DNA from: Vicinamibacterales bacterium
Lineage (GTDB): Bacteria > Acidobacteriota > Vicinamibacteria > Vicinamibacterales > 2-12-FULL-66-21
Direction: 5' to 3'
Assembly: GCA_035250005.1 (NCBI GenBank)
Contig: DATFFM010000106.1
Coordinates: 9,723-73,722 of the forward strand
Length of the DNA stretch: 64,000 nt
Shown: positions 20,102 through 61,870 of the stretch, in pieces
How positions within the stretch are numbered: position 1 is the stretch's first letter
How the letters are laid out: each line of letters begins with the position of its first letter
Notes under the pieces: model-generated
Seen by the model: only the letters and a program-made list of their open reading frames with translations
What the model was told of the DNA's origin: nothing
The model's database searches: none
Made by a program: the position numbers and the translations under genes

Positions 20102-20155
20102 GGACCCAACGGACCCCACGGACCCAACGGACCCAACGGACCCAACGGACCAGCC
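20102..20155. repeat. 6 x 9-nt tandem repeat GGACCCAAC (variants GGACCCCAC, GGACCAGCC)
   Basis: Read directly. Ends immediately before the AAGGAG SD (20156-20161) of the eRF1-like gene. The complementary strand carries GGG every 9 nt. Confidence 0.9.
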
Positions 20156-31334: not shown

Positions 31335-31341
31335 GGAACGA

Positions 31342-31434
31342 CTCCAAGCTGCAAACTCCAAACTGCACACTTCAAACTCCAAAGGTACTCGCTTTGCACC
31401 TTTTGAAGTTTGAAGTTTGAAGTTTGAAGTGTGG
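31342..31434. repeat. inverted heptamer arrays: 6 x CT(C/G/T)CAA(A/G) then 4 x TTTGAAG, forming a long imperfect hairpin
   Basis: Left array 31342-31383, AAAGG/CCTTT closing pairs, 13-nt loop 31386-31398, right array 31402-31429. Lies between the vWA stop (31439) and the small membrane gene start (31334). Confidence 0.85.
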
Positions 31435-36923: not shown

Positions 36924-38180
36924 TCATTCGATCAGCAGGGCTCCCGGATCCTCGATCAGCTCCTTGACGCGTACCAGGAACCGGACGGCTTCGGAGCCGT
37001 CGACGATCCGGTGATCGTAGGTGAGCGCCGTGTACATCATCGGCCGCAGGACGATCTGGCCGTCGACCCCGACGGGCCGGTCCTTGATGGCGTGCAGACC
37101 GAGGATGCCGACCTGCGGCGGGTTGAGGATCGGCGTGCTCTGGAGCGAACCGAAGACGCCGCCGTTGGTGATGGTGAAGGTGCCTCCCTTGAGGTCGGCC
37201 AGCGACAGGGAACCGTCGTCCGCCTTCTTCGCCAGCTCGCGGGTGCGGGCTTCGATCTCGGCGAACGACATCTGGTCGGCGTCGCGCAGGACCGGCACGA
37301 CGAGCCCCTCGCTCGCGCCGACCGCGATGCCGATATCGTAGTAGTGCTTCAGCACCATCTCGTCCCCCTGGATCTCGGCGTTGATCCGGGGGAACGCGTG
37401 CAGCGCGCCGATGACCGCCTTGACGAAGAAGGACGTCAGCCCGAGGCCGATGCCATGGCGCTCCTTGAAGCTCTCCTTGTGGCGGGCGCGCAGCGCCTGG
37501 ACGGCCGACATGTCCACCTCGTTGAAGGTGGTGAGCATCGCCGCTGTGCTCTGGACCTCGACGAGACGCCTGGCGATCGTCGCGCGGCGCTTCGACATGC
37601 GGATGCGTTCTTCAGTCCGCTCGCCGGCAGCCCGGCGCTGGGCGATGGGCGCGGGCGCAGGCGTCGCCCGAGCCTGGCTGGGCCGGGGCGCAGGAGGACC
37701 GGCGGGCTGTTCCACCGCCGGGGCGAAGGCCCCTTCGACATCGCGCTTCATGACGCGCCCGGCATCGCCGCTGCCCTTCACGCTGGCGAGATCGACGGCA
37801 TTCTTCTCGGCTGCCTTGCGCGCAGTCGGCGTCGCTCGGGTTTTGGCAGCAGCCGCCGCACCCGCCGCACTCTTTGCCTCCTCCGGGCTTTCAGTGGCGG
37901 CGCCGGCCGCACTGCCGGCATTCGCAGCACCAGCCGCGGCGGCACCCTCATCGATGACGCCGAGCACGTCACCGACCTTCACGTCGGCGCCGTCCTTGTG
38001 ATCGATCCGGGCGAGCAGGCCGGCGTGCGGGGCGGCGACCTCGAGGTCGATCTTGTCGGTCTCGAGCTCGACGAGCGGATCCCCCGCGGCCACGCTGTCG
38101 CCTTCGTGCTTCAGCCACTTCGCGACCCGCGCATCGACGATCGACTCGCCGACTTCCGGCACGACAATGTTCACGCTCAT
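36924..38180 (-). CDS. sucB: 2-oxoglutarate dehydrogenase E2, dihydrolipoyllysine-residue succinyltransferase
   Basis: Lipoyl domain VELETDKIDLEV, Ala/Pro linker, catalytic LTYDHRIVDG. Confidence 0.9.
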   Translation of the reverse strand: MSVNIVVPEVGESIVDARVAKWLKHEGDSVAAGDPLVELETDKIDLEVAAPHAGLLARIDHKDGADVKVGDVLGVIDEGAAAAGAANAGSAAGAATESPEEAKSAAGAAAAAKTRATPTARKAAEKNAVDLASVKGSGDAGRVMKRDVEGAFAPAVEQPAGPPAPRPSQARATPAPAPIAQRRAAGERTEERIRMSKRRATIARRLVEVQSTAAMLTTFNEVDMSAVQALRARHKESFKERHGIGLGLTSFFVKAVIGALHAFPRINAEIQGDEMVLKHYYDIGIAVGASEGLVVPVLRDADQMSFAEIEARTRELAKKADDGSLSLADLKGGTFTITNGGVFGSLQSTPILNPPQVGILGLHAIKDRPVGVDGQIVLRPMMYTALTYDHRIVDGSEAVRFLVRVKELIEDPGALLIE

Positions 38181-38182
38181 AA

Positions 38183-38296
38183 GATCCCTAATCCCTGATC
38201 CCTAATCCCTGATCCCTAATCCCTGATCCCTGATCCCTGATCCCTGATCCTGATCCTTGGTCTGATTAGAGATCAGGGATTAGTGACCAGGGATCC
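38183..38296. repeat. 11 x (G/A)ATCCCT heptamer array followed by an inverted arm (GATTAGA GATCAGG GATTAGT GACCAGG)
   Basis: Array 38183-38258 starts 2 nt from the sucB ATG. Inverted arm 38264-38296 includes the sucA stop and last 7 codons. The minus (mRNA) strand reads (AGGGAT[CT]) x9. Confidence 0.9.
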
Positions 38297-41083
38297 GGTG
38301 GCTGCCTTCTCGGCCACCTTGCCGCCCGAGCCGGGGGCGGCTCCGAACGCACGGTCGACGAGCGCCTGCTGGTTGGTCGCGTGGCGCGCGGCGGAGCCTT
38401 CGGCCGGGCTCGCGCTGCGCGGCCGGGCGATCCGGCGCACGGTTCGCCCACCCGCCAGCTCCGTGAGGTGCGGGCGGATGAACTCCCACGCGCCCATGTT
38501 CTCCGGCTCCTCCTGGACCCAGATGACCTCTTCGGCGCTCGCATACGCCTCGAGCATGCCGCGGAGATCGCGCATCGGCACGGGGTAGAGCTGTTCGAGC
38601 CGGCAGATCGCGACGTCCGGCCGCTGGGCGCGATGTTCGCTGACCATCAGGTCGACGAAGACCTTGCCGGAGCAGACCAGCACCCGCCGGATCTCGCTCG
38701 CCCGATCCGCAGCATCGGCGTCCGGAATCACCATCCGGAACCGGCCCTCCGCCAGCTCCCGCGGCGCGGACGCCACCATCGCGTGGCGCAGCAGGCTCTT
38801 CGGCGTCAGCACGACGAGCGGGAGCGGGTCCACCTCCAGCAGCGCCGCCTGGCGGCGAAGCAGGTGAAAGTATTGAGCCGCGGTCGTGCAGTTGGCGATG
38901 CGGACGTTGATGTCGGCCGCGAGCTGCAGAAAACGCTCCGGCCGCGCACTCGCATGGTCCGGCCCCTGCCCCTCGTGCCCGTGCGGCAGCAGCAGCACGA
39001 GCGACGGCCGCAGCCCCCACTTGCCCCGCGCCGAGACGAGGAACTCGTCGATCATCGTCTGCGCGCCGTTGATGAAGTCGCCGTACTGCGCCTCCCAGAT
39101 GACGAGGCGCAGCGGCTCCTGGATGTTGTAGCCGAACTCGAAGCCGATCAGCGCGTTCTCGGTCAGCGGACTGTTGTGGATCTCGAACGCCGCGCGCGCC
39201 TGCGGGATCTGCTGCAGCGGCACGTGAACGGCGCCGGTGTTCACGTCGTGGAACACCGCATGGCGATGGCTGAACGTGCCGCGCTCGACGTCTTCGCCGG
39301 TCAGCCGGATGGCGGCGCCATCGGCGAGGATCGATGCGAACGCCAGCTCCTCGGCGGCCGCCCAGTCCACGGTCCGCTCATCGGCACTGTCGAGAATCGC
39401 CGGCCGCTTCTCGCGCACGCGTTCGAGCTTGCGATGGATCGCGAATCCGTCGGGCAGCCGCACGAGCGACGCGTTCAGCTCGCGCAGCCGGTCGAGCGGC
39501 ACCGCCGTGGCGGCCTTCATCGCCGCGCCCGCCGGCGGCGCCTCGGGCTCCGGCTCGATGTAATCCTGCTCCGGCTTCAGCGTGTCCATCGTCTGCTGCA
39601 GCGCCGACATGTATCTGGCCGACAGCTGGTCCGCCGCTTCGGGGGTGATCGCGCCGCGGTCGGCGAGCGTGGCCGCCCAGATCTGCCGCACGGTTGGATG
39701 CGCCGAGATCTTCTGGTACATGAGCGGCTGCGTGAACGCCGGTTCGTCCCCCTCGTTGTGCCCGTAGCGGCGGTAGCCGATCAGATCGATCAGAAAATCG
39801 CGCTGGAACTGCTTCCGGTATGCGATCGCGAGGCGAGCGGCCTCGACGCACGCCTCCGGGTCGTCGGCGTTGACGTGAATGATCGGGATCTTGAACCCGC
39901 GCGCAAGCCCGCTGGCGTATGACGTGCTGTAAATGTCTTCAGCCCCGGTCGTGAACCCGAGCTGGTTGTTTACGATGATATGGATCGTGCCGCCGGTGTT
40001 GTAGCCCTGCAGCCGCGACAGGTTCAACGTTTCGGCCACCACCCCCTGGCCGGGGAAGGCCGCGTCGCCGTGGATCAGGATCGGCAGGCTGCAGGTGGGA
40101 TCGAACTTGGCCGGCCCCGGTTCGCCGACCGATGTTCCGGCCGCGCGCGCCATCCCCAGAACGACCGGATCGACCGCCTCGAGGTGGCTCGGGTTGGGCG
40201 GCATCGCAACGAAGACATCCAGGGCGGCCCCCCCTTTCAGCGCGCGCCGGGCACCGGCGTGATACTTCACGTCGCCGGTCCAGGCCATGTCTTCCCTGAA
40301 GCTCCTGCCTGAAACCGGATCCTTGAACTCCGCCAGGATCTGCGCGTACGGCTTGTTCAGCACGTGCGCCATGACGTTCAGGCGCCCGCGGTGCGCCATT
40401 CCGATGAGGATGTGACGCGCGCCGAACTCCGCCGAGTCGCCGATGATCTCGTCGAGCACCGGCACGAGCATGTCGAGCCCCTCGATCGAAAACCGGGTCT
40501 TGCCCGGGAACGTCCGGTGCAGAAAGCGCTCGAACGCCTCGACCTGCGACAGCCGGTCGAGCAGCGCCGCCGGATCGATCGGGTCGGCGGGCGAGCGGAA
40601 CCGTCCGGATTCCACCGCCTGCCGCAGCCATCGCCGCTCCTCGGGGACGAACACGTGCGCGAAGTCGTAGCCGGTGGTCGAACAGTAGACGCCCCGGAAC
40701 GCCTCGGCAACTTCGTACATGTTCGCGGCGCTCTCGGCCAGCCCCGACCAGATCAGCGAAGCGGGCAACGCCCGAAGATCCGCATTCGTCACGCCGTGTG
40801 TTTCCGGCAGGAGAGACGGGTCCCCGGGCGGGCGGGAACCGAGCGGGTCGAGCTGCGCGGCGAGATGCCCGTACCGGCGGATGGACTGCACCAGGTTGAC
40901 GGCCCCGACGCTGTTCAGGACCGGCTGCCCGCCAGTCTCGAGCGCTTCTTCGACGTGCGGCGTCCATTGCTCGAACAGCGCACGGGTGCCGGCGTCGACC
41001 GAAGCCGGATCCTGCCGGTACCGGTCGTACAACTCGAGCACGTATCCGCGGTTGAGATCGCTGAATTCCTGCCAGCCGGGCAT
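38273..41083 (-). CDS. sucA: 2-oxoglutarate dehydrogenase E1 component
   Basis: 936 aa. MAHRGRLNVMAHVL, GDAAFPGQGVV, GYRRYGHNEGDEP and the typical E1o C-terminal domain. Confidence 0.9.
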   Translation of the reverse strand: MPGWQEFSDLNRGYVLELYDRYRQDPASVDAGTRALFEQWTPHVEEALETGGQPVLNSVGAVNLVQSIRRYGHLAAQLDPLGSRPPGDPSLLPETHGVTNADLRALPASLIWSGLAESAANMYEVAEAFRGVYCSTTGYDFAHVFVPEERRWLRQAVESGRFRSPADPIDPAALLDRLSQVEAFERFLHRTFPGKTRFSIEGLDMLVPVLDEIIGDSAEFGARHILIGMAHRGRLNVMAHVLNKPYAQILAEFKDPVSGRSFREDMAWTGDVKYHAGARRALKGGAALDVFVAMPPNPSHLEAVDPVVLGMARAAGTSVGEPGPAKFDPTCSLPILIHGDAAFPGQGVVAETLNLSRLQGYNTGGTIHIIVNNQLGFTTGAEDIYSTSYASGLARGFKIPIIHVNADDPEACVEAARLAIAYRKQFQRDFLIDLIGYRRYGHNEGDEPAFTQPLMYQKISAHPTVRQIWAATLADRGAITPEAADQLSARYMSALQQTMDTLKPEQDYIEPEPEAPPAGAAMKAATAVPLDRLRELNASLVRLPDGFAIHRKLERVREKRPAILDSADERTVDWAAAEELAFASILADGAAIRLTGEDVERGTFSHRHAVFHDVNTGAVHVPLQQIPQARAAFEIHNSPLTENALIGFEFGYNIQEPLRLVIWEAQYGDFINGAQTMIDEFLVSARGKWGLRPSLVLLLPHGHEGQGPDHASARPERFLQLAADINVRIANCTTAAQYFHLLRRQAALLEVDPLPLVVLTPKSLLRHAMVASAPRELAEGRFRMVIPDADAADRASEIRRVLVCSGKVFVDLMVSEHRAQRPDVAICRLEQLYPVPMRDLRGMLEAYASAEEVIWVQEEPENMGAWEFIRPHLTELAGGRTVRRIARPRSASPAEGSAARHATNQQALVDRAFGAAPGSGGKVAEKAATGSLVTNP

Positions 41084-41088
41084 GTCTC

Positions 41089-41094
41089 TATAAT
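41089..41094 (+). promoter_or_regulatory. perfect TATAAT hexamer 8 nt upstream of esterase ATG (candidate -10 of a leaderless transcript)
   Basis: Only 19 bp separate the divergent start codons 41083 (sucA) and 41103. There is no SD before 41103 and no good -35 (TTCCTG). Confidence 0.3.
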
Positions 41095-41102
41095 CCTATC
41101 GC

Positions 41103-41987: not shown

Positions 41988-41989
41988 GA

Positions 41990-42068
41990 CAACTCCAAAT
42001 CTCAAACTTCAAACTCCAAAAAGAGCTCATCCCGAGCTTTGGAGTTTGAAGTTTGAAGTTTGGAGTTG
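41990..42068. repeat. near-perfect ~35-bp hairpin built from CT(C/T)CAAA / TTTG(A/G)AG heptamers; candidate bidirectional terminator
   Basis: Left arm CAACTCCAAATCTCAAACTTCAAACTCCAAA 41990-42020; right arm TTTGGAGTTTGAAGTTTGAAGTTTGGAGTTG 42038-42068. The inner AGCTC/GAGCT pairs leave a 5-nt loop. It exactly fills the gap between convergent stops 41987 and 42072. Confidence 0.85.
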
Positions 42069-42071
42069 TAG

Positions 42072-46659: not shown

Positions 46660-49062
46660 TCACTCCGAACGCAGGGCAACAAGCGGATCCACCGAGACCG
46701 CGCGCCGCACCGGCACGTAGGCCGCCACCAGTGCCACGAGCGACAGGATCACGACGACCGCCCCATACGTCGCCGGATCCGACGGTGACACCTGAAACAA
46801 CAGGCTCGCCGCCAACATCCTCCCGAGCACGGCGCCGCCGGTCAGGCCGATGGCGCCCCCGACCAGGACGAGCACCACCGTCTGCCGCACGATCATACGG
46901 CGAATGTCTCCCCCGGCGGCGCCGAGCGCCATGCGGATGCCGATTTCCTGGTATCGCTGGCTGACCGAGTACGACACCACGCCGTACAGTCCAGACGCCG
47001 CAAGCACCAGCGCCAGCGCGCCGAATGCGATGAACATCCCCATCAGGATCCGGCTGGTCGACATCTCGTCGTCGAAGACCTCTTCGAGCGTGCGGATCTC
47101 GCGGACCGGGACGTCAGGGTCGAGTGCACGCACCTCCGCCCGGGCCGACGCTATGAGCCGGCTCGCATCCGTCGCCCGGACCAGCACCGCCATCGTCGAG
47201 CGGGGATCCTGTCGCGCCGGTAGGTAGATCTGCGGATTGACGCTCCGAAGATCGGCCCGCAGCACGTTGCCAGTCACGCCGACGACGGTCAGCCGGCGAT
47301 CGTCTCCCTCGAGTTGCAGCCGCCGACCGAGGGCTCCCGCCTCCCCGCCCCAGTACCGCCGGGCCATTTCGGCATTGATGATCGCGACTCGCATCGCGAG
47401 GTCGTTGTCGGACGGAGCGAAGGGGCGGCCGGCAAGGACCGGGATGCCCGCGGTCGAGAAGAATCGCTCGCTCACCCGGGCCGGCACCGCCCACGCACGG
47501 TCCTGGGGACGGGCTGGTTCAAAGCCCTCGACCCGGATCGCGGCTACCGCCTCGGAGCCTACTACCGGCAGGCGATCGGTCGTGGCAGCGTCGCGGGCAG
47601 CGGGCAGCGCGGTGAGTCGAGTCAACAGCTGGTCCTGGAACTGCCGGATCGAGGCTGGAGTCGTGTATCGCCAGTGAGGCAGCTCGATTCGGATGGTGAG
47701 CAGGTCGCCGCGGTCGAACCCGAGCGGCGCCCGGTTGATCTCAACCATCGTCCGCACGAGCAATCCCGAGACGATCAGCAGCATCATCGCCAGGGCCAGT
47801 TGCGCAACCACCAGCGCCGAGCGGCTCCGGCGGCCGCGCTGCCCGCCGGCGCGATTCGAGCTGTCTTTCAACGCTTCCTGCAGGTCAGGATTTGACGCCT
47901 GGAGGGCGGGAAGCAGGCTGAAGACCAGCGGCGTGACGATCGCGAGCACGCCCGTAAAGAGGAGGACGGTTCGGTCGATGACGACCAGTTTGAAGAACGG
48001 CTCGTAGGCGGCCGCGCGAATCAGGATGAGCCCGCCGTAGGCCACGAGCAGGCCGAGCAGCCCGCCGGCCGCGGCGAGAAGCATGCTCTCGGTCAGCAGC
48101 TGGCGCACCATGCGTGCCCGGCTGGCACCGAGCGCCCCCCGGACGGCCAGTTCGCGCCGGCGTCCCGTTGCCCGTGCGAGAACGAGGTTTGCGATGTTCG
48201 CGCAGGCAATCACCAGCACGAACCCGACGACGGTGATGAGCAGCGCCAGGATCCGCCAGGTATCGCCGCCGGTCATCGCCTCCTTCGCCGGTGCGAGACG
48301 GGCCTCCCAGCCGGCATTTGTCGCCGGGTGATCGGACTGCAGCCGGCGCGAGACGTCACGCACCGCCGCGGCGGCCTGCTCGAAGCTCACACCCGGCTTC
48401 AACCGCCCACTCACACGGAGATTGCGCTGGTCGCGCGGGACCGCAGGATCGAGCGTGATCGGTACCCAGACATCGATCAGGCTCAGGTTGCCGATTTCGA
48501 TGTCGGGCTGCAGCACTCCGATGACCGCATGCGGCCGGCCGTTGAGCACGAGCGATTGGCCGACGACGGAAGCGTCGGCGTTGAAGCGCCGAACCCAGAA
48601 ATGGTGACTGAGCATGACGACCGGCGCTGCACCGGGCAGGTCGTCCCGCGGGCCGAACGCGCGCCCTGTCCGTGTCTCGAGACCCCAGGTGTCGGGCAGA
48701 TTGGCCGTGACGCTGGACCCGACGAGGGCCTCGGCGTCCCCCCTTCCCGTCATCGTGAACGCCGAAGCCGTATAACCGGCAATCGACTCGAACGATTCGA
48801 GCGACGCGCGGTAATCGAGGAGCTCGCTGACCGACAGCGGCCCCCGGCTGCCGCCCCGTTGTGGATCGTTCAGGAAAATCCAGCCGAGGGTGTCATGATC
48901 CTTGAGAGGCAGAGGTCTGAGGGCGAGGACGTTGGCGAAGCTGAAGATGACTGTGTTGGCGCCGATCGCCAGCGCCAGAGTCGAAGCGATGAGCAGCGCG
49001 TAGCCCGGCTGACGCCACACGATGCGGGCGCCAAAGCGAAGATCCTGTAGCAGTGCACGCAT
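46660..49062 (-). CDS. ADOP-type duplicated FtsX/MacB-like permease
   Basis: MRALLQDLRFGARIVWRQPGYALLIASTLALAIGANTVIFS; two FtsX halves (IACANIANLVLARATGRRRELAVRGALGA; RYQEIGIRMALGA). AGGAGG SD. Confidence 0.85.
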   Translation of the reverse strand: MRALLQDLRFGARIVWRQPGYALLIASTLALAIGANTVIFSFANVLALRPLPLKDHDTLGWIFLNDPQRGGSRGPLSVSELLDYRASLESFESIAGYTASAFTMTGRGDAEALVGSSVTANLPDTWGLETRTGRAFGPRDDLPGAAPVVMLSHHFWVRRFNADASVVGQSLVLNGRPHAVIGVLQPDIEIGNLSLIDVWVPITLDPAVPRDQRNLRVSGRLKPGVSFEQAAAAVRDVSRRLQSDHPATNAGWEARLAPAKEAMTGGDTWRILALLITVVGFVLVIACANIANLVLARATGRRRELAVRGALGASRARMVRQLLTESMLLAAAGGLLGLLVAYGGLILIRAAAYEPFFKLVVIDRTVLLFTGVLAIVTPLVFSLLPALQASNPDLQEALKDSSNRAGGQRGRRSRSALVVAQLALAMMLLIVSGLLVRTMVEINRAPLGFDRGDLLTIRIELPHWRYTTPASIRQFQDQLLTRLTALPAARDAATTDRLPVVGSEAVAAIRVEGFEPARPQDRAWAVPARVSERFFSTAGIPVLAGRPFAPSDNDLAMRVAIINAEMARRYWGGEAGALGRRLQLEGDDRRLTVVGVTGNVLRADLRSVNPQIYLPARQDPRSTMAVLVRATDASRLIASARAEVRALDPDVPVREIRTLEEVFDDEMSTSRILMGMFIAFGALALVLAASGLYGVVSYSVSQRYQEIGIRMALGAAGGDIRRMIVRQTVVLVLVGGAIGLTGGAVLGRMLAASLLFQVSPSDPATYGAVVVILSLVALVAAYVPVRRAVSVDPLVALRSE

Positions 49063-49092: not shown

Positions 49093-49234
49093 AATCGCTA
49101 ATCCCTAATCCCTAATCCTTGATCGGATCTTTCACGGCATCCTAGACCGAAACGACCATCCAAGCCCTGGTCGCGGCCACAAGCGGGGACTGAAGATCGT
49201 GATCGCGATCAGGGATCAGGGATTAGAGATCTTC
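49093..49234. repeat. second (A/G)ATCCCT-family locus: 4-5 units (49093-49127) and an inverted arm (49195-49234) about 70 nt apart
   Basis: AATCGCT AATCCCT AATCCCT AATCCTT GATCGGA ... GATCGCGATCAGG GATCAGG GATTAGA GATCTTC. The right arm contains the stop and last codons of the FGE-like gene. GAAGATC/GATCTTC form an additional inverted pair. Confidence 0.8.
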
Positions 49235-50049
49235 AGCGCGGCTTGCCCTCCATCCCGGCGCGCGAGCACGACGCGGAAGCCGATGCAGCCGTCGTGGGCG
49301 TCCGGTTGGCTCCCGTAGCGCCACCAGACCGTGCAGTGCAGGTCCCAGTTGTGGTGGCACCCGCCGCGCAGCCGCCGCTCGGCACCGGGTCCCGGGTAGG
49401 GACGCCCATCAGCGGGGACCGCGTCGATGCTGTCGGTACAGACGTCCTGGCACCACTCCCATACATTGCCCGACATGTCGTAGAGGCCGAGCCGATTCGG
49501 CGCCTTGGTCGCGACCGGATGCGTGCGAGTGACTGGCTTACGGTGTGGAAGGCTGTTCGCGAGGCGCCACGCGATGCGCCAACCGAAGAGCTGGACCAGA
49601 CCCTGGTGCGCGCGCGTCCAGCGCGGACCGTACCAGGCCACCGCGTCGGGATCGTGGCTTCCGCTGAACGCAACCCCGTCGCGCCAATGGGGCCCGCCGC
49701 GTGCGGCGTACTCCCATTCGGTTTCGGACGGAAGACGGAAGCGGAGGTCGGCGTCGCCGGCGGCGAGCGCCGGCAGGATCTCGCTCGCGTCGAGCCGGTC
49801 GAAAAAGCCGCCCGGCCCCGTGATGTGCTCCCAGGACACGTTCTCCACCGGGCAGCGAAGATCCGGCCGCGCGGCCGGATTGGACCCCATCACGAGCTGC
49901 CAGAGCGCCTGGGTCACCGGGGTTGTCGCGATGAAGAACCCCGGCACGTCCACTGCACGGCCCGTCCGGCCCGTGCCCGAACCGGTACGGACTGCCATCG
50001 GTGCCCGGCACCCACACGAGCCCGAGCTCGTGCTCGCCTGAGTCGTCAC
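49216..50049 (-). CDS. formylglycine-generating-enzyme (SUMF1/EgtB/PvdO) family protein; N-terminus apparently in another frame
   Basis: GNVWEWCQD, RRLRGGCHHNW, GCIGFRVVLA. The expected N-terminal strand (LGLVWVPG...) and a GAAGG SD plus ATG 50074 lie in a different frame (track ORF 49538..50074). Confidence 0.6.
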   Translation of the reverse strand: MTTQASTSSGSCGCRAPMAVRTGSGTGRTGRAVDVPGFFIATTPVTQALWQLVMGSNPAARPDLRCPVENVSWEHITGPGGFFDRLDASEILPALAAGDADLRFRLPSETEWEYAARGGPHWRDGVAFSGSHDPDAVAWYGPRWTRAHQGLVQLFGWRIAWRLANSLPHRKPVTRTHPVATKAPNRLGLYDMSGNVWEWCQDVCTDSIDAVPADGRPYPGPGAERRLRGGCHHNWDLHCTVWWRYGSQPDAHDGCIGFRVVLARRDGGQAALKISNP

Positions 50050-61801: not shown

Positions 61802-61870
61802 CTTGAAGTTGGAAATTTGGCGTTTTGATATGTGAATTTGAAGTTTGAAGTTGAGATTTGAAGTTTGCCT
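61802..61870 (+). repeat. about 10 direct, degenerate TTTGAAG-family heptamers (no inverted partner)
   Basis: CTTGAAG TTGGAAA TTTGGCG TTTTGAT ATGTGAA TTTGAAG TTTGAAG TTGAGA TTTGAAG TTTGCCT, in the divergent region between cyanophycinase (61768) and padR (61923). Confidence 0.8.

Follow-up and report, generated by a model that had tools for sequence, protein, structure and literature searches.

Results

Organisation of the sucA-sucB junction

On the minus strand within the 64-kb stretch of DNA analysed here (the window), the genes for the E1 and E2 components of 2-oxoglutarate dehydrogenase, sucA and sucB, are separated by a spacer of 92 nt (38181-38272) that contains 11 heptamer units. The features of the junction are as follows:

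36924..38180, minus strand: sucB (E2, dihydrolipoyllysine succinyltransferase), 418 aa; NF004309, 548 bits
38273..41083, minus strand: sucA (2-oxoglutarate dehydrogenase E1), 936 aa; NF006914, 1088 bits
38183..38245, minus strand: nine perfect AGGGAT[CT] units (mRNA strand), with nine GGG tracts and 4-nt loops
38246..38258, minus strand: two degenerate units, AAGGATC and AGGATC (mRNA strand), at the sucA-proximal end of the array
38259..38263, minus strand: linker AGACC (mRNA strand) from the inverted arm to the array
38264..38296, minus strand: C-rich inverted arm, the 5' arm on the mRNA; its coding part is 38273-38296
38273..38275, minus strand: sucA stop codon TGA, formed by CCCTGATC of the inverted arm
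38276..38296, minus strand: last seven sucA codons, GSLVTNP, repeat-derived, in place of the lineage-conserved ...QDAALTSAKG

SucB aligns over residues 1-418 to positions 1-407 of the NF004309 model, and its ATG (38180-38178 on the minus strand) is separated by only 2 nt from the array, the end of which reads ...AGGGATC TT ATG on the mRNA strand. The 11 units with nine GGG tracts and 4-nt loops reported in the preliminary description were recovered both by TRF (38183-38256, period 7, 10.7 copies, score 120) and by reading the plus strand by hand, where nine perfect (G/A)ATCCCT units are followed by GATCCT (38246-38251) and GATCCTT (38252-38258). The six ATG-proximal units alternate between ATT and ATC; it is this alternating part that the inverted arm mirrors, and TRF assigns the arm a period of 14. 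The nine GGG runs of the minus strand make up six overlapping G3N4 x4 motifs, so the quadruplex pattern does occur more than once, as had been claimed. A search for AGGGATYAGGGATY with at most one mismatch gave 14 matches in the window, all within 38183-38281 and 49093-49231, and none in 100 shuffles.

The SD sequence of sucB had also been ascribed to a repeat unit. What is present at -9..-5 is only an SD-like AGGGA; a canonical SD precedes only about 12 of the 32 called genes of the window. No promoter-like or terminator-like sites were found in a scan of 37800-38700, and from this and the operon layout we infer that sucA and sucB are probably co-transcribed. The possibility that the hairpin is an intrinsic terminator was rejected on the basis of the same scan and because its stem is followed by CUUAUG and not by a U run. 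When the junction was compared with Rfam 15, nothing reached the gathering score, and only sub-threshold matches to hairpins of eukaryotic miRNA precursors appeared.

Repeat-derived C-terminus of SucA

The last sucA codons, GGA TCC CTG GTC ACT AAT CCC TGA, fall inside the inverted arm, which confirms that both they and the stop codon originate from the repeat. The protein ends with ...KAATGSLVTNP, while the endings ...QDAALTSAKG or ...QLTSSKG are found in most of the 119 other homologues, and in nearly all of the closest ones, among the matches listed. The NF006914 model stops at SucA residue 914, which places the altered tail outside the conserved fold. By eye, the inverted arm shows some identity to the ancestral sucA tail (about 50-70% over short stretches), which is too weak to be claimed as leftover homology.

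The attention of the preliminary description had been drawn to the NP* ending, shared by sucA and the gene at 49216 (see below). Both endings are real; however, the C-rich strand reaches TGA or TAA within three units in all three frames, so their agreement is a mechanical outcome of the unit sequence.

Predicted RNA structures

The inverted arm (38264-38294/8) is able to pair with the array in at least six registers with 77-91% complementarity, the best of them covering 31 nt at 90%, in agreement with the multiple registers described previously. The stem of the junction hairpin is about 33 bp long, with 31 of its 33 positions paired. The predicted folding energy of the sense junction RNA is -75.4 kcal/mol (z = -7.0), and the successive hairpin registers are predicted to be stable as the transcript grows (-43 to -75 kcal/mol). 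In all seven of the one-direction hairpins compared, the sense RNA folds better than the antisense RNA, by 3.6-27.8 kcal/mol, partly due to G-U pairs.

Opening of the region -20..+15 around the sucB AUG is predicted to cost 11-13 kcal/mol. In the comparison, predictions of 13.0 kcal/mol for the window, 13.4 for a shorter allele in contig L207 and 12.2 for the array-free relative L081 (both described below) were obtained. For the narrower region -15..+10 the predictions for the two alleles are 12.2 and 5.9 kcal/mol. The idea of the hairpin as a strong block of the sucB start was rejected since the arm finds other registers in which to pair again and opening costs about as much as in the array-free relative; the same two values, 13.0 and 12.2 kcal/mol, speak against the switch of the sucB:sucA translation ratio that had been suggested earlier.

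G4Hunter scoring, one of the checks proposed in the preliminary description, gave a maximum of 1.4. The quadruplex is the predicted minimum-energy structure of the isolated array. With a G4-aware energy model and the full context, however, the hairpin remains the minimum-energy structure, and the prediction changes to a quadruplex only under a constraint that keeps the 5' arm open (-28.0 vs -22.3 kcal/mol). In the 7-unit L207 allele only one or two G tracts are left outside the stem. The proposed choice between the hairpin, the quadruplex and free SD-like units is thus supported in so far as the motif and the multi-register hairpin exist, but it fails where the three states should compete, the hairpin winning in full context with the quadruplex allowed.

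Conservation and length variation of the junction

Contig L207 is 99.95% identical to the window over 4.2 kb (2 of 4,192 flanking bases differ), yet its array consists of 7 units with 6 GGG tracts, being shorter at the sucA-proximal end, against 11 units with 9 tracts in the window; both are short-read assemblies. Such a difference between near-identical strains argues against a dedicated switch. In the X3 contig, which comes from an independent run and covers part of the junction other than the unit number, the inverted arm and the SucA tail are present.

In the closest relative, L081, whose SucA is 90% identical and which is placed as sister in the NJ tree, the spacer measures 9 nt, the tail is the usual ...SAKG* and there is no array. 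Heptamer arrays are found at the junction in six of the seven other close relatives, often with different units. Related arrays of AGGGATY or AGCGATT units, differing in length, occur in L205, L203, L083 and L204 and invade the sucA tail to a varying extent, the arms in L083 being devoid of GGG, and the arrays of L082 and L206 show no significant structure and are accompanied by their own GAGGA SD. In total, five relatives have G-tract arrays on the sense strand at this junction, and the number of GGG tracts among the relatives ranges from 0 to 9. A regulatory RNA G-quadruplex was rejected on these grounds, the motif being absent in L081 and the hairpin being favoured in context. Among 80 loci of 63-83% identity most spacers measure 0-12 nt, and about 10 loci have other heptamer arrays (units e.g. 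CAGGTCG, CCCGAAC, TTTCCAG/AACTGGN). The native junction of the relatives, AAR GGR TAR, resembles the unit AGGGATYAG.

The comparison of SucA C-termini and spacers had been named beforehand as one that could speak against a switch, and it does: the closest orthologue has no array and a normal tail, most SucA C-termini align without NP, and spacers of 0-12 nt are common. Judged by these comparisons, the array is not a conserved sucAB device. Nevertheless, the window, L207, L083 and L205 share a layout in which the sucA stop lies in or adjoins the 5' arm and the 3' arm ends 3-15 nt before the ATG, and this hairpin layout is shared despite differing units (CCC/GGG vs CGC/GYG). Together with the better folding of the sense strand, it gives a hint of constraint on the RNA, although both features could arise equally from inverted duplication and a C-to-T bias on the coding strand.

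Other heptamer loci in the window

The window contains two loci of the GGGATYA unit and three of another unit. Besides the sucA-sucB array these are:

49093..49120, minus strand: sister locus, G-rich arm AAGGATT AGGGATT AGGGATT AGCGATT
49207..49231, minus strand: sister locus, C-rich arm, overlapping the stop codon (49216-49218) of an FGE-sulfatase-family gene
41991..42067, no strand assigned: hairpin (AACTCCA)4 / (TTTGAAG, TTTGGAG)4 of the other heptamer family; z -10 and -8
31341..31430, minus strand: hairpin (ACTCCAA)n / (TTTGAAG)4 of the ACTCCAA/TTTGAAG family, 9 nt 3' of the stop of a VWA-domain gene on the minus strand
61803..61867, no strand assigned: degenerate TTGAAGT array, about 9 units, located in the 5' region of a peptidase S51 gene

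The G-rich arm of the sister locus lies upstream of a MacB/FtsX permease gene (46660-49062), ahead of its AGGAGG SD. The FGE-sulfatase-family gene (49216..50049, minus strand) ends with ...AAT CCC TGA (...ISNP*) within the repeat arm, as the preliminary description had it; an exact-protein look-up of its product returned no identical record. The hairpin at 41991..42067 makes up the entire gap between convergent esterase and ADOP permease genes, and the equivalent gap in L081 is 3 nt. An identical copy, with no variation, is present in the independent contig L208, which ends at the hairpin. The ACTCCAA/TTTGAAG hairpins have no G tracts.

Heptamer repeats across the lineage and in other phyla

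In 652 kb of related loci, tandem arrays of period 7 (35) outnumbered those of periods 8 (12), 9 (11) and 6 (1). At a lower score threshold, 676 kb of related loci yielded 88 heptamer arrays with 61 different units, that is, about one array per 8 kb in the sampled loci. Although non-coding DNA constitutes 13% of the sequence, 69 of the 88 arrays are intergenic or at gene ends; counted by gene orientation, 26 cases in the 676 kb are co-directional, 12 convergent and 4 divergent. Measured from an array cluster to the stop codon next to it, the median distance is 8 nt. Of 35 arrays, 17 have a partner in inverted orientation no more than 200 nt away, as compared with 0 of 35 in the reversed-sequence control.

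The GGGATYA unit forms arrays in many phyla. Here the inverted partners do not exceed the control (14 of 104 arrays vs 20 of 104 with reversed sequence), because degenerate array flanks match the control. Between co-directional genes the G-rich strand is on the mRNA in 13 cases and the C-rich strand in 30. This bias, like the presence in the same genome of heptamer hairpins without G tracts, is contrary to a switch based on the quadruplex.

Discussion

The sucA-sucB array is an ordinary member of the bacterial class of G-rich heptamer repeats and one of many in its Vicinamibacterales-like genome and lineage. In our opinion it is probably a hypermutable GGGATYA simple sequence repeat (SSR) accompanied by a partial copy, in inverted orientation, of its own ATG-proximal end, which the cell tolerates as a fast-evolving passenger and which is not a conserved switch. 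The array would have grown in place at a former translationally coupled junction of 0-12 nt (...AAR GGR TAR, few bases, ATG), with strand slippage adding and removing units, and the inverted arm may represent a snap-back or template-switch copy that overwrote the last ~10 codons of sucA. The new stop codon and the NP* ending would then follow from the repeat itself, since every frame entering the C-rich copy is closed by TGA or TAA after at most three units.

In the transcript, the C-rich arm and the array are predicted to form a hairpin of about 33 bp that would slide along the array in 7- or 14-nt steps. As the sucA UGA lies within the 5' arm, each terminating ribosome would have to melt the stem, and the melting would lay open the weakly SD-like stretch ahead of the sucB AUG. 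On balance, translation of sucB would then probably still be tied to that of sucA despite the 92-nt insertion. The stem would be long enough to serve as an RNase III substrate and may be cleaved. Changes in the unit number would shift the loop size and the register and may nudge the E2 output; a regulatory role of the array is possible. The quadruplex would be at most a minor conformer, available, according to the energy model, only while the 5' arm is held open.

A more ambitious interpretation would see in the junction a selected repeat-number rheostat, in which a hairpin of the Haemophilus influenzae hmw type (PMC12721329) is processed by RNase III and/or gates the sucB start and the unit changes tune the E2:E1 ratio. 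The well-paired predicted stem (31 of 33 positions), the differing copy number in near-identical contigs, which alters the loop and the register together with the -15..+10 opening cost (12.2 vs 5.9 kcal/mol), the layout kept in 4-5 lineages, the better folding of the sense strand through G-U pairs and the experimental precedent in hmw are all consistent with it. Nevertheless we consider it unlikely in view of the array-free sister lineage L081, the unstructured arrays with their own GAGGA SD in L082 and L206, the opening energy of -20..+15, which does not differ between the alleles (13.0 and 13.4) and comes close to that of L081, and the similar arrays at unrelated junctions, including those of convergent genes. 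Still less credible is a three-state switch in which sucB translation is set by the competition of an RNA G-quadruplex with the hairpin and free SD-like units. The nine G3 tracts with 4-nt loops, the G4Hunter maximum of 1.4, the quadruplex predicted for the array alone and with the 5' arm held by a terminating ribosome, and the ability of similar heptamer oligonucleotides to form quadruplexes in vitro (PMC4692102) are outweighed by several observations: the hairpin wins in full context with the quadruplex allowed, the 7-unit allele retains only 1-2 tracts beyond the stem, the arms in L083 lack GGG and the ACTCCAA/TTTGAAG hairpins lack G tracts, the C-rich strand prevails on the mRNA of co-directional genes across phyla (30 vs 13), and in the hmw precedent it was the hairpin and not the G-rich sequence that mattered (PMC12721329).

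The arm-loop-arm organisation at four window sites adjoining stop codons, with the variant units of each arm mirrored in order in the partner arm, might also suggest a mobile palindromic element of the REP/BIME or MITE type inserted at the gene junction. This origin appears very improbable: outside the repeats, same-unit loci have no core or loop sequence in common, the flanks show no target-site duplication, 61 different units occur among 88 arrays, length changes by whole units between near-identical contigs, and the unit resembles the native junction sequence. The array could also be a binding-site array for an RNA- or DNA-binding protein, acting as a translational operator or a sponge; CAGGGAU, for example, fits CARGGAU, the motif of CsrA-type proteins. 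The motif is repeated 9-11 times and overlaps the sucB start region, GGGATYA arrays exist in many phyla, and protein binding has been proposed for TAACTGA repeats 5' of start codons (PMC4679880). However, the diversity of unit sequences in the lineage, the more frequent transcription of the C-rich strand, the variable count and the absence of the motif from the sister lineage leave this explanation with very little probability. An assembly artefact may be practically discounted. Tandem repeats and palindromes do break or distort short-read assemblies, and L204 and L208 end at arrays, but at 77 nt the array does not reach the length of usual reads, the arm and the tail recur in the independent run X3 and the independent contig L207, and several other assemblies contain related arrays. 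The tolerated passenger described above is the reading that we retain.

A poorly understood class of bacterial heptamer repeats is hereby extended to the Acidobacteriota, a dominant and mostly uncultured soil phylum. As the junction illustrates, repeats of this class can replace the conserved tail of a protein and give rise to a new stop codon; from a tightly coupled junction they can also make a long structured spacer, with gene linkage kept. For annotation, tails such as ...SLIANR*, ...SLVTNP* and ...ISNP* beside such arrays should be regarded as repeat-derived. If the sampled density holds genome-wide, each genome would contain hundreds of arrays. Should the repeat number affect the SucB output, the junction would count among the rare cases in which repeats tune central metabolism; if the output is unaffected, it would be a clean example of junk tolerated at a core operon junction. 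One may go further and speculate that heptamer-repeat hairpins are a general heritable tuning system in Vicinamibacterales, the repeat number between sucA and sucB setting the register and loop of a sliding hairpin that is melted by ribosomes, cleaved by RNase III and replaced by a quadruplex when the 5' arm is open, which would adjust the E2:E1 ratio between strains. We regard so broad a generalisation as quite improbable; if true, it would amount to a phase-variation-like control of core metabolism in free-living soil bacteria. A phase-variation (contingency) locus in the proper sense was rejected, the site being located between TCA-cycle cistrons and outside the sucB frame, with only the last sucA codons touched.

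Comparison with known repeat systems

A stem-loop at or overlapping a stop codon inside an operon brings to mind the REP/BIME elements. In E. coli these form stable stem-loops just past or overlapping stop codons within operons, where their possible effects include stabilisation of the upstream mRNA and interference with termination-proximal translation. REPs, however, are copies of a conserved palindrome of 20-40 nt mobilised by RAYT transposases, whereas the arms described here are built of tandem heptamers of many sequences with no conserved core.

Closer in their unit length are the cyanobacterial STRR and the TAACTGA repeats of Beggiatoaceae, Cyanobacteria and Bacteroidetes (MacGregor 2015, PMC4679880), which are likewise abundant intergenic tandem heptamers, often located a few bases 5' of starts where a canonical SD is rare, and for which post-transcriptional roles were proposed. 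They differ in having one dominant unit per genome, mostly in 2-6 direct copies, with no more than one inverted set reported (PMC4679880).

The 5'-UTRs of H. influenzae hmw1A/hmw2A provide the experimentally tested case (Rapun-Araiz et al. 2025, PMC12721329). There, an (ATCTTTC)n repeat forms a hairpin processed by RNase III, and variation of the repeat number changes expression. As is predicted here, a transcribed heptamer repeat contributes one of the two arms of a long hairpin, its partner being a G-rich stretch, and the question of hairpin or quadruplex was raised; it was the hairpin that counted rather than the G-rich sequence (PMC12721329). The hmw repeat, however, belongs to the 5'-UTR of an adhesin gene in a host-adapted pathogen, whereas the present one lies between two cistrons of a core metabolic operon in an uncultured soil bacterium, is itself the G-rich arm, is missing from a sister lineage and is known from sequence alone.

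The greatest resemblance is to the G-rich heptameric SSRs of the GGGNATC type of Rehm et al. (2015, PMC4692102), represented by GGGAATC in Xanthomonas and GGGGA(C/T)T in Nostoc; the same paper cites Mrazek et al. (2007) for the excess of heptamers, and such oligonucleotides form quadruplexes in vitro. Those repeats, too, are arranged in tandem, each heptamer combining a G3 tract with a 4-nt loop in which ATC or ATT occurs; they are intergenic, mainly between co-oriented genes and rarely between divergent ones, frequently occur as inverted pairs whose possible stem-loops compete with the quadruplex, vary widely in length and sequence between related genomes and lie near ordinary metabolic genes, with one intra-operon site at pecE-pecF (PMC4692102). 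In the loci sampled we found the same set of properties, namely G3 heptamers, many mostly non-coding arrays, unit-number variation and inverted pairs. The unit here, GGGATYA, differs in carrying the extra base after ATC and not before it, and the host belongs to another phylum, the Acidobacteriota, with dozens of other heptamer units in the same genome. At the sucA-sucB junction, moreover, the inverted arm has invaded the coding region, where it stands in place of a conserved C-terminal tail and provides the stop codon, and the array adjoins the next start codon in the rarer of the two orientations, with its G-rich strand on the mRNA.

Anatomy of the sucA-sucB spacer

The element between the genes for 2-oxoglutarate dehydrogenase E1 (sucA) and E2 (sucB) is a heptamer repeat, hypervariable and accompanied by an inverted copy of itself; it is not conserved at the orthologous site and is one of a large family. 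The window has a GC content of about 67% and also encodes an ADOP-family permease; the nearest proteins to its SucA among the homologues listed carry the label Vicinamibacterales. These features mark the contig as acidobacterial, from soil or rhizosphere.

36924..38180, (-) strand: E2 (sucB) ORF
38181-38272: sucA-sucB spacer, 92 nt, read on the mRNA strand
38264-38296: inverted arm
38273..41083, (-) strand: E1 (sucA) ORF

The mRNA strand reads UGA UCUCUAAUCAGACC AAGGAUC AGGAUC (AGGGAUC)4, followed by AGGGAUU AGGGAUC AGGGAUU AGGGAUC AGGGAUU AGGGAUC UU AUG, in which GGG occurs nine times and the G3N4 x4 motif six times, with overlap; TRF reports period 7, 10.7 copies and a score of 120. The two-unit pattern has 14 matches in the window, confined to this spacer and to 49093-49231, and none in 100 shuffles. 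The last seven sucA codons and the TGA fall within the arm. The arm shows complementarity to the array in six or more registers (best: 31 nt, 90%) and repeats in mirrored form the alternation of ATT and ATC in the ATG-proximal units, hence the period of 14 that TRF finds in it. The preliminary description of a heptamer array with nine G3N4 units, an inverted arm and a repeat-derived sucA end is accurate by TRF, motif counts and register search.

sucA and an esterase gene have divergent start codons 19 nt apart (41084-41102) with a perfect TATAAT in the gap; their transcripts must be leaderless, or the promoters must lie inside the neighbouring gene.

Turnover at orthologous junctions

Most of the SucA homologues listed, including nearly all of the closest, end in ...KAKQDAALTSAKG or a close variant; the window's protein ends in ...KAATGSLVTNP. 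The E1 family model reaches only to residue 914, which places the altered tail outside the conserved fold. Among 80 metagenome loci with 63-83% identity over the SucA C-terminal third, the spacer is 0-12 nt in most, and heptamer arrays occur in about ten, with quite different units and inverted arms in several.

Table. sucA-sucB junctions in related loci
L081: SucA 90%, sister in NJ tree; GCG AAG GGG TAA CGATTTCTC ATG; no array, normal tail
L082, L206: SucA 87-88%; normal tail, then GGGAATG/CGGATTG arrays, own GAGGA SD
L205: SucA 87%; C-rich arm directly after stop codon, then AGGGATY array
L203: SucA 83%; tail ...ESLIANR* from (AATCGCT)-type units, then (AGGGATC)4
L083: SucA 83%; tail ...GSLIANR*; (AATCGCT)3 arm over stop codon; middle GGGATKC array; AGTGATY/AGCGATT arm ends 3 nt before ATG
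L204: SucA 84%; contig end falls inside (AATCGCT)n

The comparison of orthologous spacers and SucA C-termini, proposed with the preliminary description as a check on a regulatory switch, thus went against it: the closest relative, L081, has neither the array nor the altered tail, and on this alignment evidence there is no conservation of the array itself. The varied junctions of the relatives make this site a repeat hot spot in the group, where arrays have come and gone, their unit sequence has changed, and repeats have entered the coding tail more than once. Several public SucA homologues (P0036, P0037, P0044, P0048 and P0004) have repeat-derived ends (...SLIANR, ...VLIANEAATS, ...ALANS) and not ...LTSAKG, which likewise means repeated invasion of the coding end. 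The native junction AAR GGR TAR, which encodes K-G-stop and also looks like a sucB SD, resembles the unit AGGGATYAG and may have seeded the array.

Longer heptamer arrays are found in relatives (L024 2463-2613, (AAGCCGG) x22; L082 1738-1829, (CAATCCC) x13), and the 270-nt sucA-sucB spacer of L011 (1351-1622) is built from two arrays in opposing orientation, about 10 and 15 units long. In L082 (12945-14221) and L205 (3535-4767) sucB is called as two genes, a lipoyl/E3-binding part and a catalytic part, which suggests a frameshift or assembly error in the linker region.

Length variation is also seen at close range. L207, an independent contig from a different ENA assembly, encodes an identical SucB and a SucA of 936 aa and matches the window at all but 2 of 4,192 flanking positions, but its spacer has 65 nt, 7 units and 6 GGG tracts against 92 nt, 11 units and 9 tracts. 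The 27 nt missing are at the loop side of the array; the arm, apart from one silent T/C difference, and the ATG-proximal units are preserved. The assembler's largest k-mer is longer than either array, which makes a real difference likely. The arm and the repeat-derived sucA tail also occur in a third sample, X3.

A family of heptamer repeats

The window contains further repeat loci:

20102-20151: 9-mer array (GGACCCAAC) x5.6
31341-31430: ACTCCAA/TTTGAAG hairpin, 9 nt beyond the stop codon of a VWA-domain gene on the (-) strand
41991-42067: near-perfect AACTCCA/TTTGAAG hairpin, filling a convergent gap
61803-61867: degenerate TTGAAGT array

A second locus, noted previously at 49216, holds up: in this FGE-sulfatase-to-permease spacer a matching C-rich arm lies over the stop codon (...ISNP*) and the G-rich arm follows 90 nt further on. 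The hairpin at 41991-42067 (about -55 kcal/mol on both strands) makes up the entire 84-nt gap (41988-42071) that separates the esterase gene (+) from the ADOP permease gene (-), a convergent pair with a gap of 3 nt in L081; in L208, an independent Logan contig, it is identical and the contig stops exactly at the hairpin end. The ACTCCAA/TTTGAAG hairpins have no G tracts, and what the window loci share is period 7 with an inverted arm, not quadruplex potential. The nonamer array lies directly upstream of an AAGGAG SD and the ATG (20167) of a bacterial archaeo-eukaryotic release-factor family gene (baeRF family 10, eRF1 domain 3).

In 652 kb of related loci, arrays of at least three copies have period 7 in 35 cases, period 8 in 12, period 9 in 11 and period 6 in one, with 7 further arrays each at periods 14 and 21. 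An inverted partner lies within 200 nt of 17/35 heptamer arrays (reversed-sequence control 0/35). With a lower threshold, 676 kb yielded 88 heptamer arrays (about 1 per 8 kb) of 61 different canonical units; 62 lie between genes and 7 across gene ends, against a non-coding share of just 13%, and divergent spacers are under-used. The median distance from array cluster to neighbouring stop codon is 8 nt. On the simplest reading, the arrays are the spacer itself, grown within formerly tiny gaps.

Exact matches to (GGGATYA)3GGG, the only unit scanned for, number at least 119 in species-representative genomes and come from at least 8 phyla: Acidobacteriota (including several Vicinamibacterales), Planctomycetota, Chloroflexota, Bacteroidota, Cyanobacteria (Nostoc, Fischerella), Xanthomonas and Lysobacterales, Clostridia and Verrucomicrobiota. 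Among the matches listed, 115 of 125 arrays lie outside genes by a simple purpose-written gene caller; four tracts are commonest, which is the scan minimum and so reveals no preference, and nine or more are rare. The inverted-partner test on these listed loci scored 14 arrays, and the control was higher (20/104). All 14 (loci L084-L202), weak calls that do not beat the control, have the G-rich array first and the C-rich arm second, opposite to the window's order.

Predicted folding and possible function

The sense RNA (38320-38160) is predicted to fold at -75.4 kcal/mol (z = -7.0), with the 5' arm paired to the five ATG-proximal units and the remaining units as loop; because the arm fits many registers, the hairpin would slide. 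Growing transcripts have a stable predicted hairpin at each step (-43 to -75 kcal/mol), and -53.5 kcal/mol is still left when -42..+15 is kept open. On paper, then, a sliding hairpin dominates this RNA. Matching hairpin layouts with other unit sequences are predicted for L083 (z = -7.2) and L205 (z = -2.7); the L082 and L206 junctions gave no significant structure in the folding test. A scan of the junction found no promoter-like or terminator-like sites, and an Rfam search returned no family. Sense folds better than antisense in 7/7 hairpins transcribed in one direction, partly via G-U pairs (8 in the sense fold of L083, 1 in the antisense), the transcribed (-) strand of 31341-31430 by some 9-10 kcal/mol; this predicted advantage fits RNA-level constraint or a C-to-T bias on the coding strand.

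We regard the element, with moderate confidence, as a tolerated passenger with modest consequences for the mRNA. Units would be gained and lost via slipped-strand mispairing, and the mirrored order of variant units suggests snap-back or template-switch copying as the origin of the arm. Translation into the C-rich strand should stop within three units in any frame, which would explain both the new sucA stop codon and the NP* ending shared with the second locus. A ribosome terminating at the UGA in the 5' arm would have to melt the stem and so expose the sucB start, keeping the genes coupled as in relatives with 0-12-nt spacers. The near-perfect 33-bp stem may also be a substrate for RNase III.

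A selected repeat-number rheostat appears unlikely. Opening -15..+10 is predicted to cost 5.9 kcal/mol in the 7-unit allele (L207), whose minimum-energy structure leaves the last unit unpaired, vs 12.2 in the 11-unit one; for -20..+15 at the sucB AUG the ensemble costs are 13.4 and 13.0 kcal/mol, and 12.2 in L081, 9.9 in L082 and 24.9 in L083. The preliminary description's choice between hairpin and G4 survives in part: the ViennaRNA quadruplex model predicts a three-layer G4 for the isolated array (G4Hunter maximum 1.4), and also with the 5' arm kept unpaired, as a ribosome at the sucA stop codon would do (-28.0 vs -22.3 kcal/mol), but in full context the minimum-energy structure is still the hairpin. 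That a G4 acts as the switch seems to us improbable. Among the GGGATYA arrays listed between co-directional genes the C-rich strand is the commoner on the mRNA (30 vs 13); the orientation in the window is the less frequent, evidence against the G-rich RNA having a general role. The small probability left over falls to minor rivals: a mobile palindromic element, an array of protein-binding sites or an assembly artefact.

Comparison with known systems

Our literature search found no paper connecting Vicinamibacter with tandem repeats. In sequence class the array belongs with the G-rich heptamer repeats known from Xanthomonas and Nostoc, which lie between genes, frequently as inverted pairs, differ from one relative to the next and form G4s in vitro, with no function assigned (PMC4692102). 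New here are the phylum, the unit, the unit diversity within one lineage and the overwritten conserved SucA tail. The closest mechanistic precedent for the predicted hairpin is the hmw 5'-UTR of H. influenzae, in which the transcript's (ATCTTTC)n arm base-pairs with a G-rich one, the resulting hairpin is cut by RNase III, and it is the hairpin that matters, not the G-rich sequence (PMC12721329).
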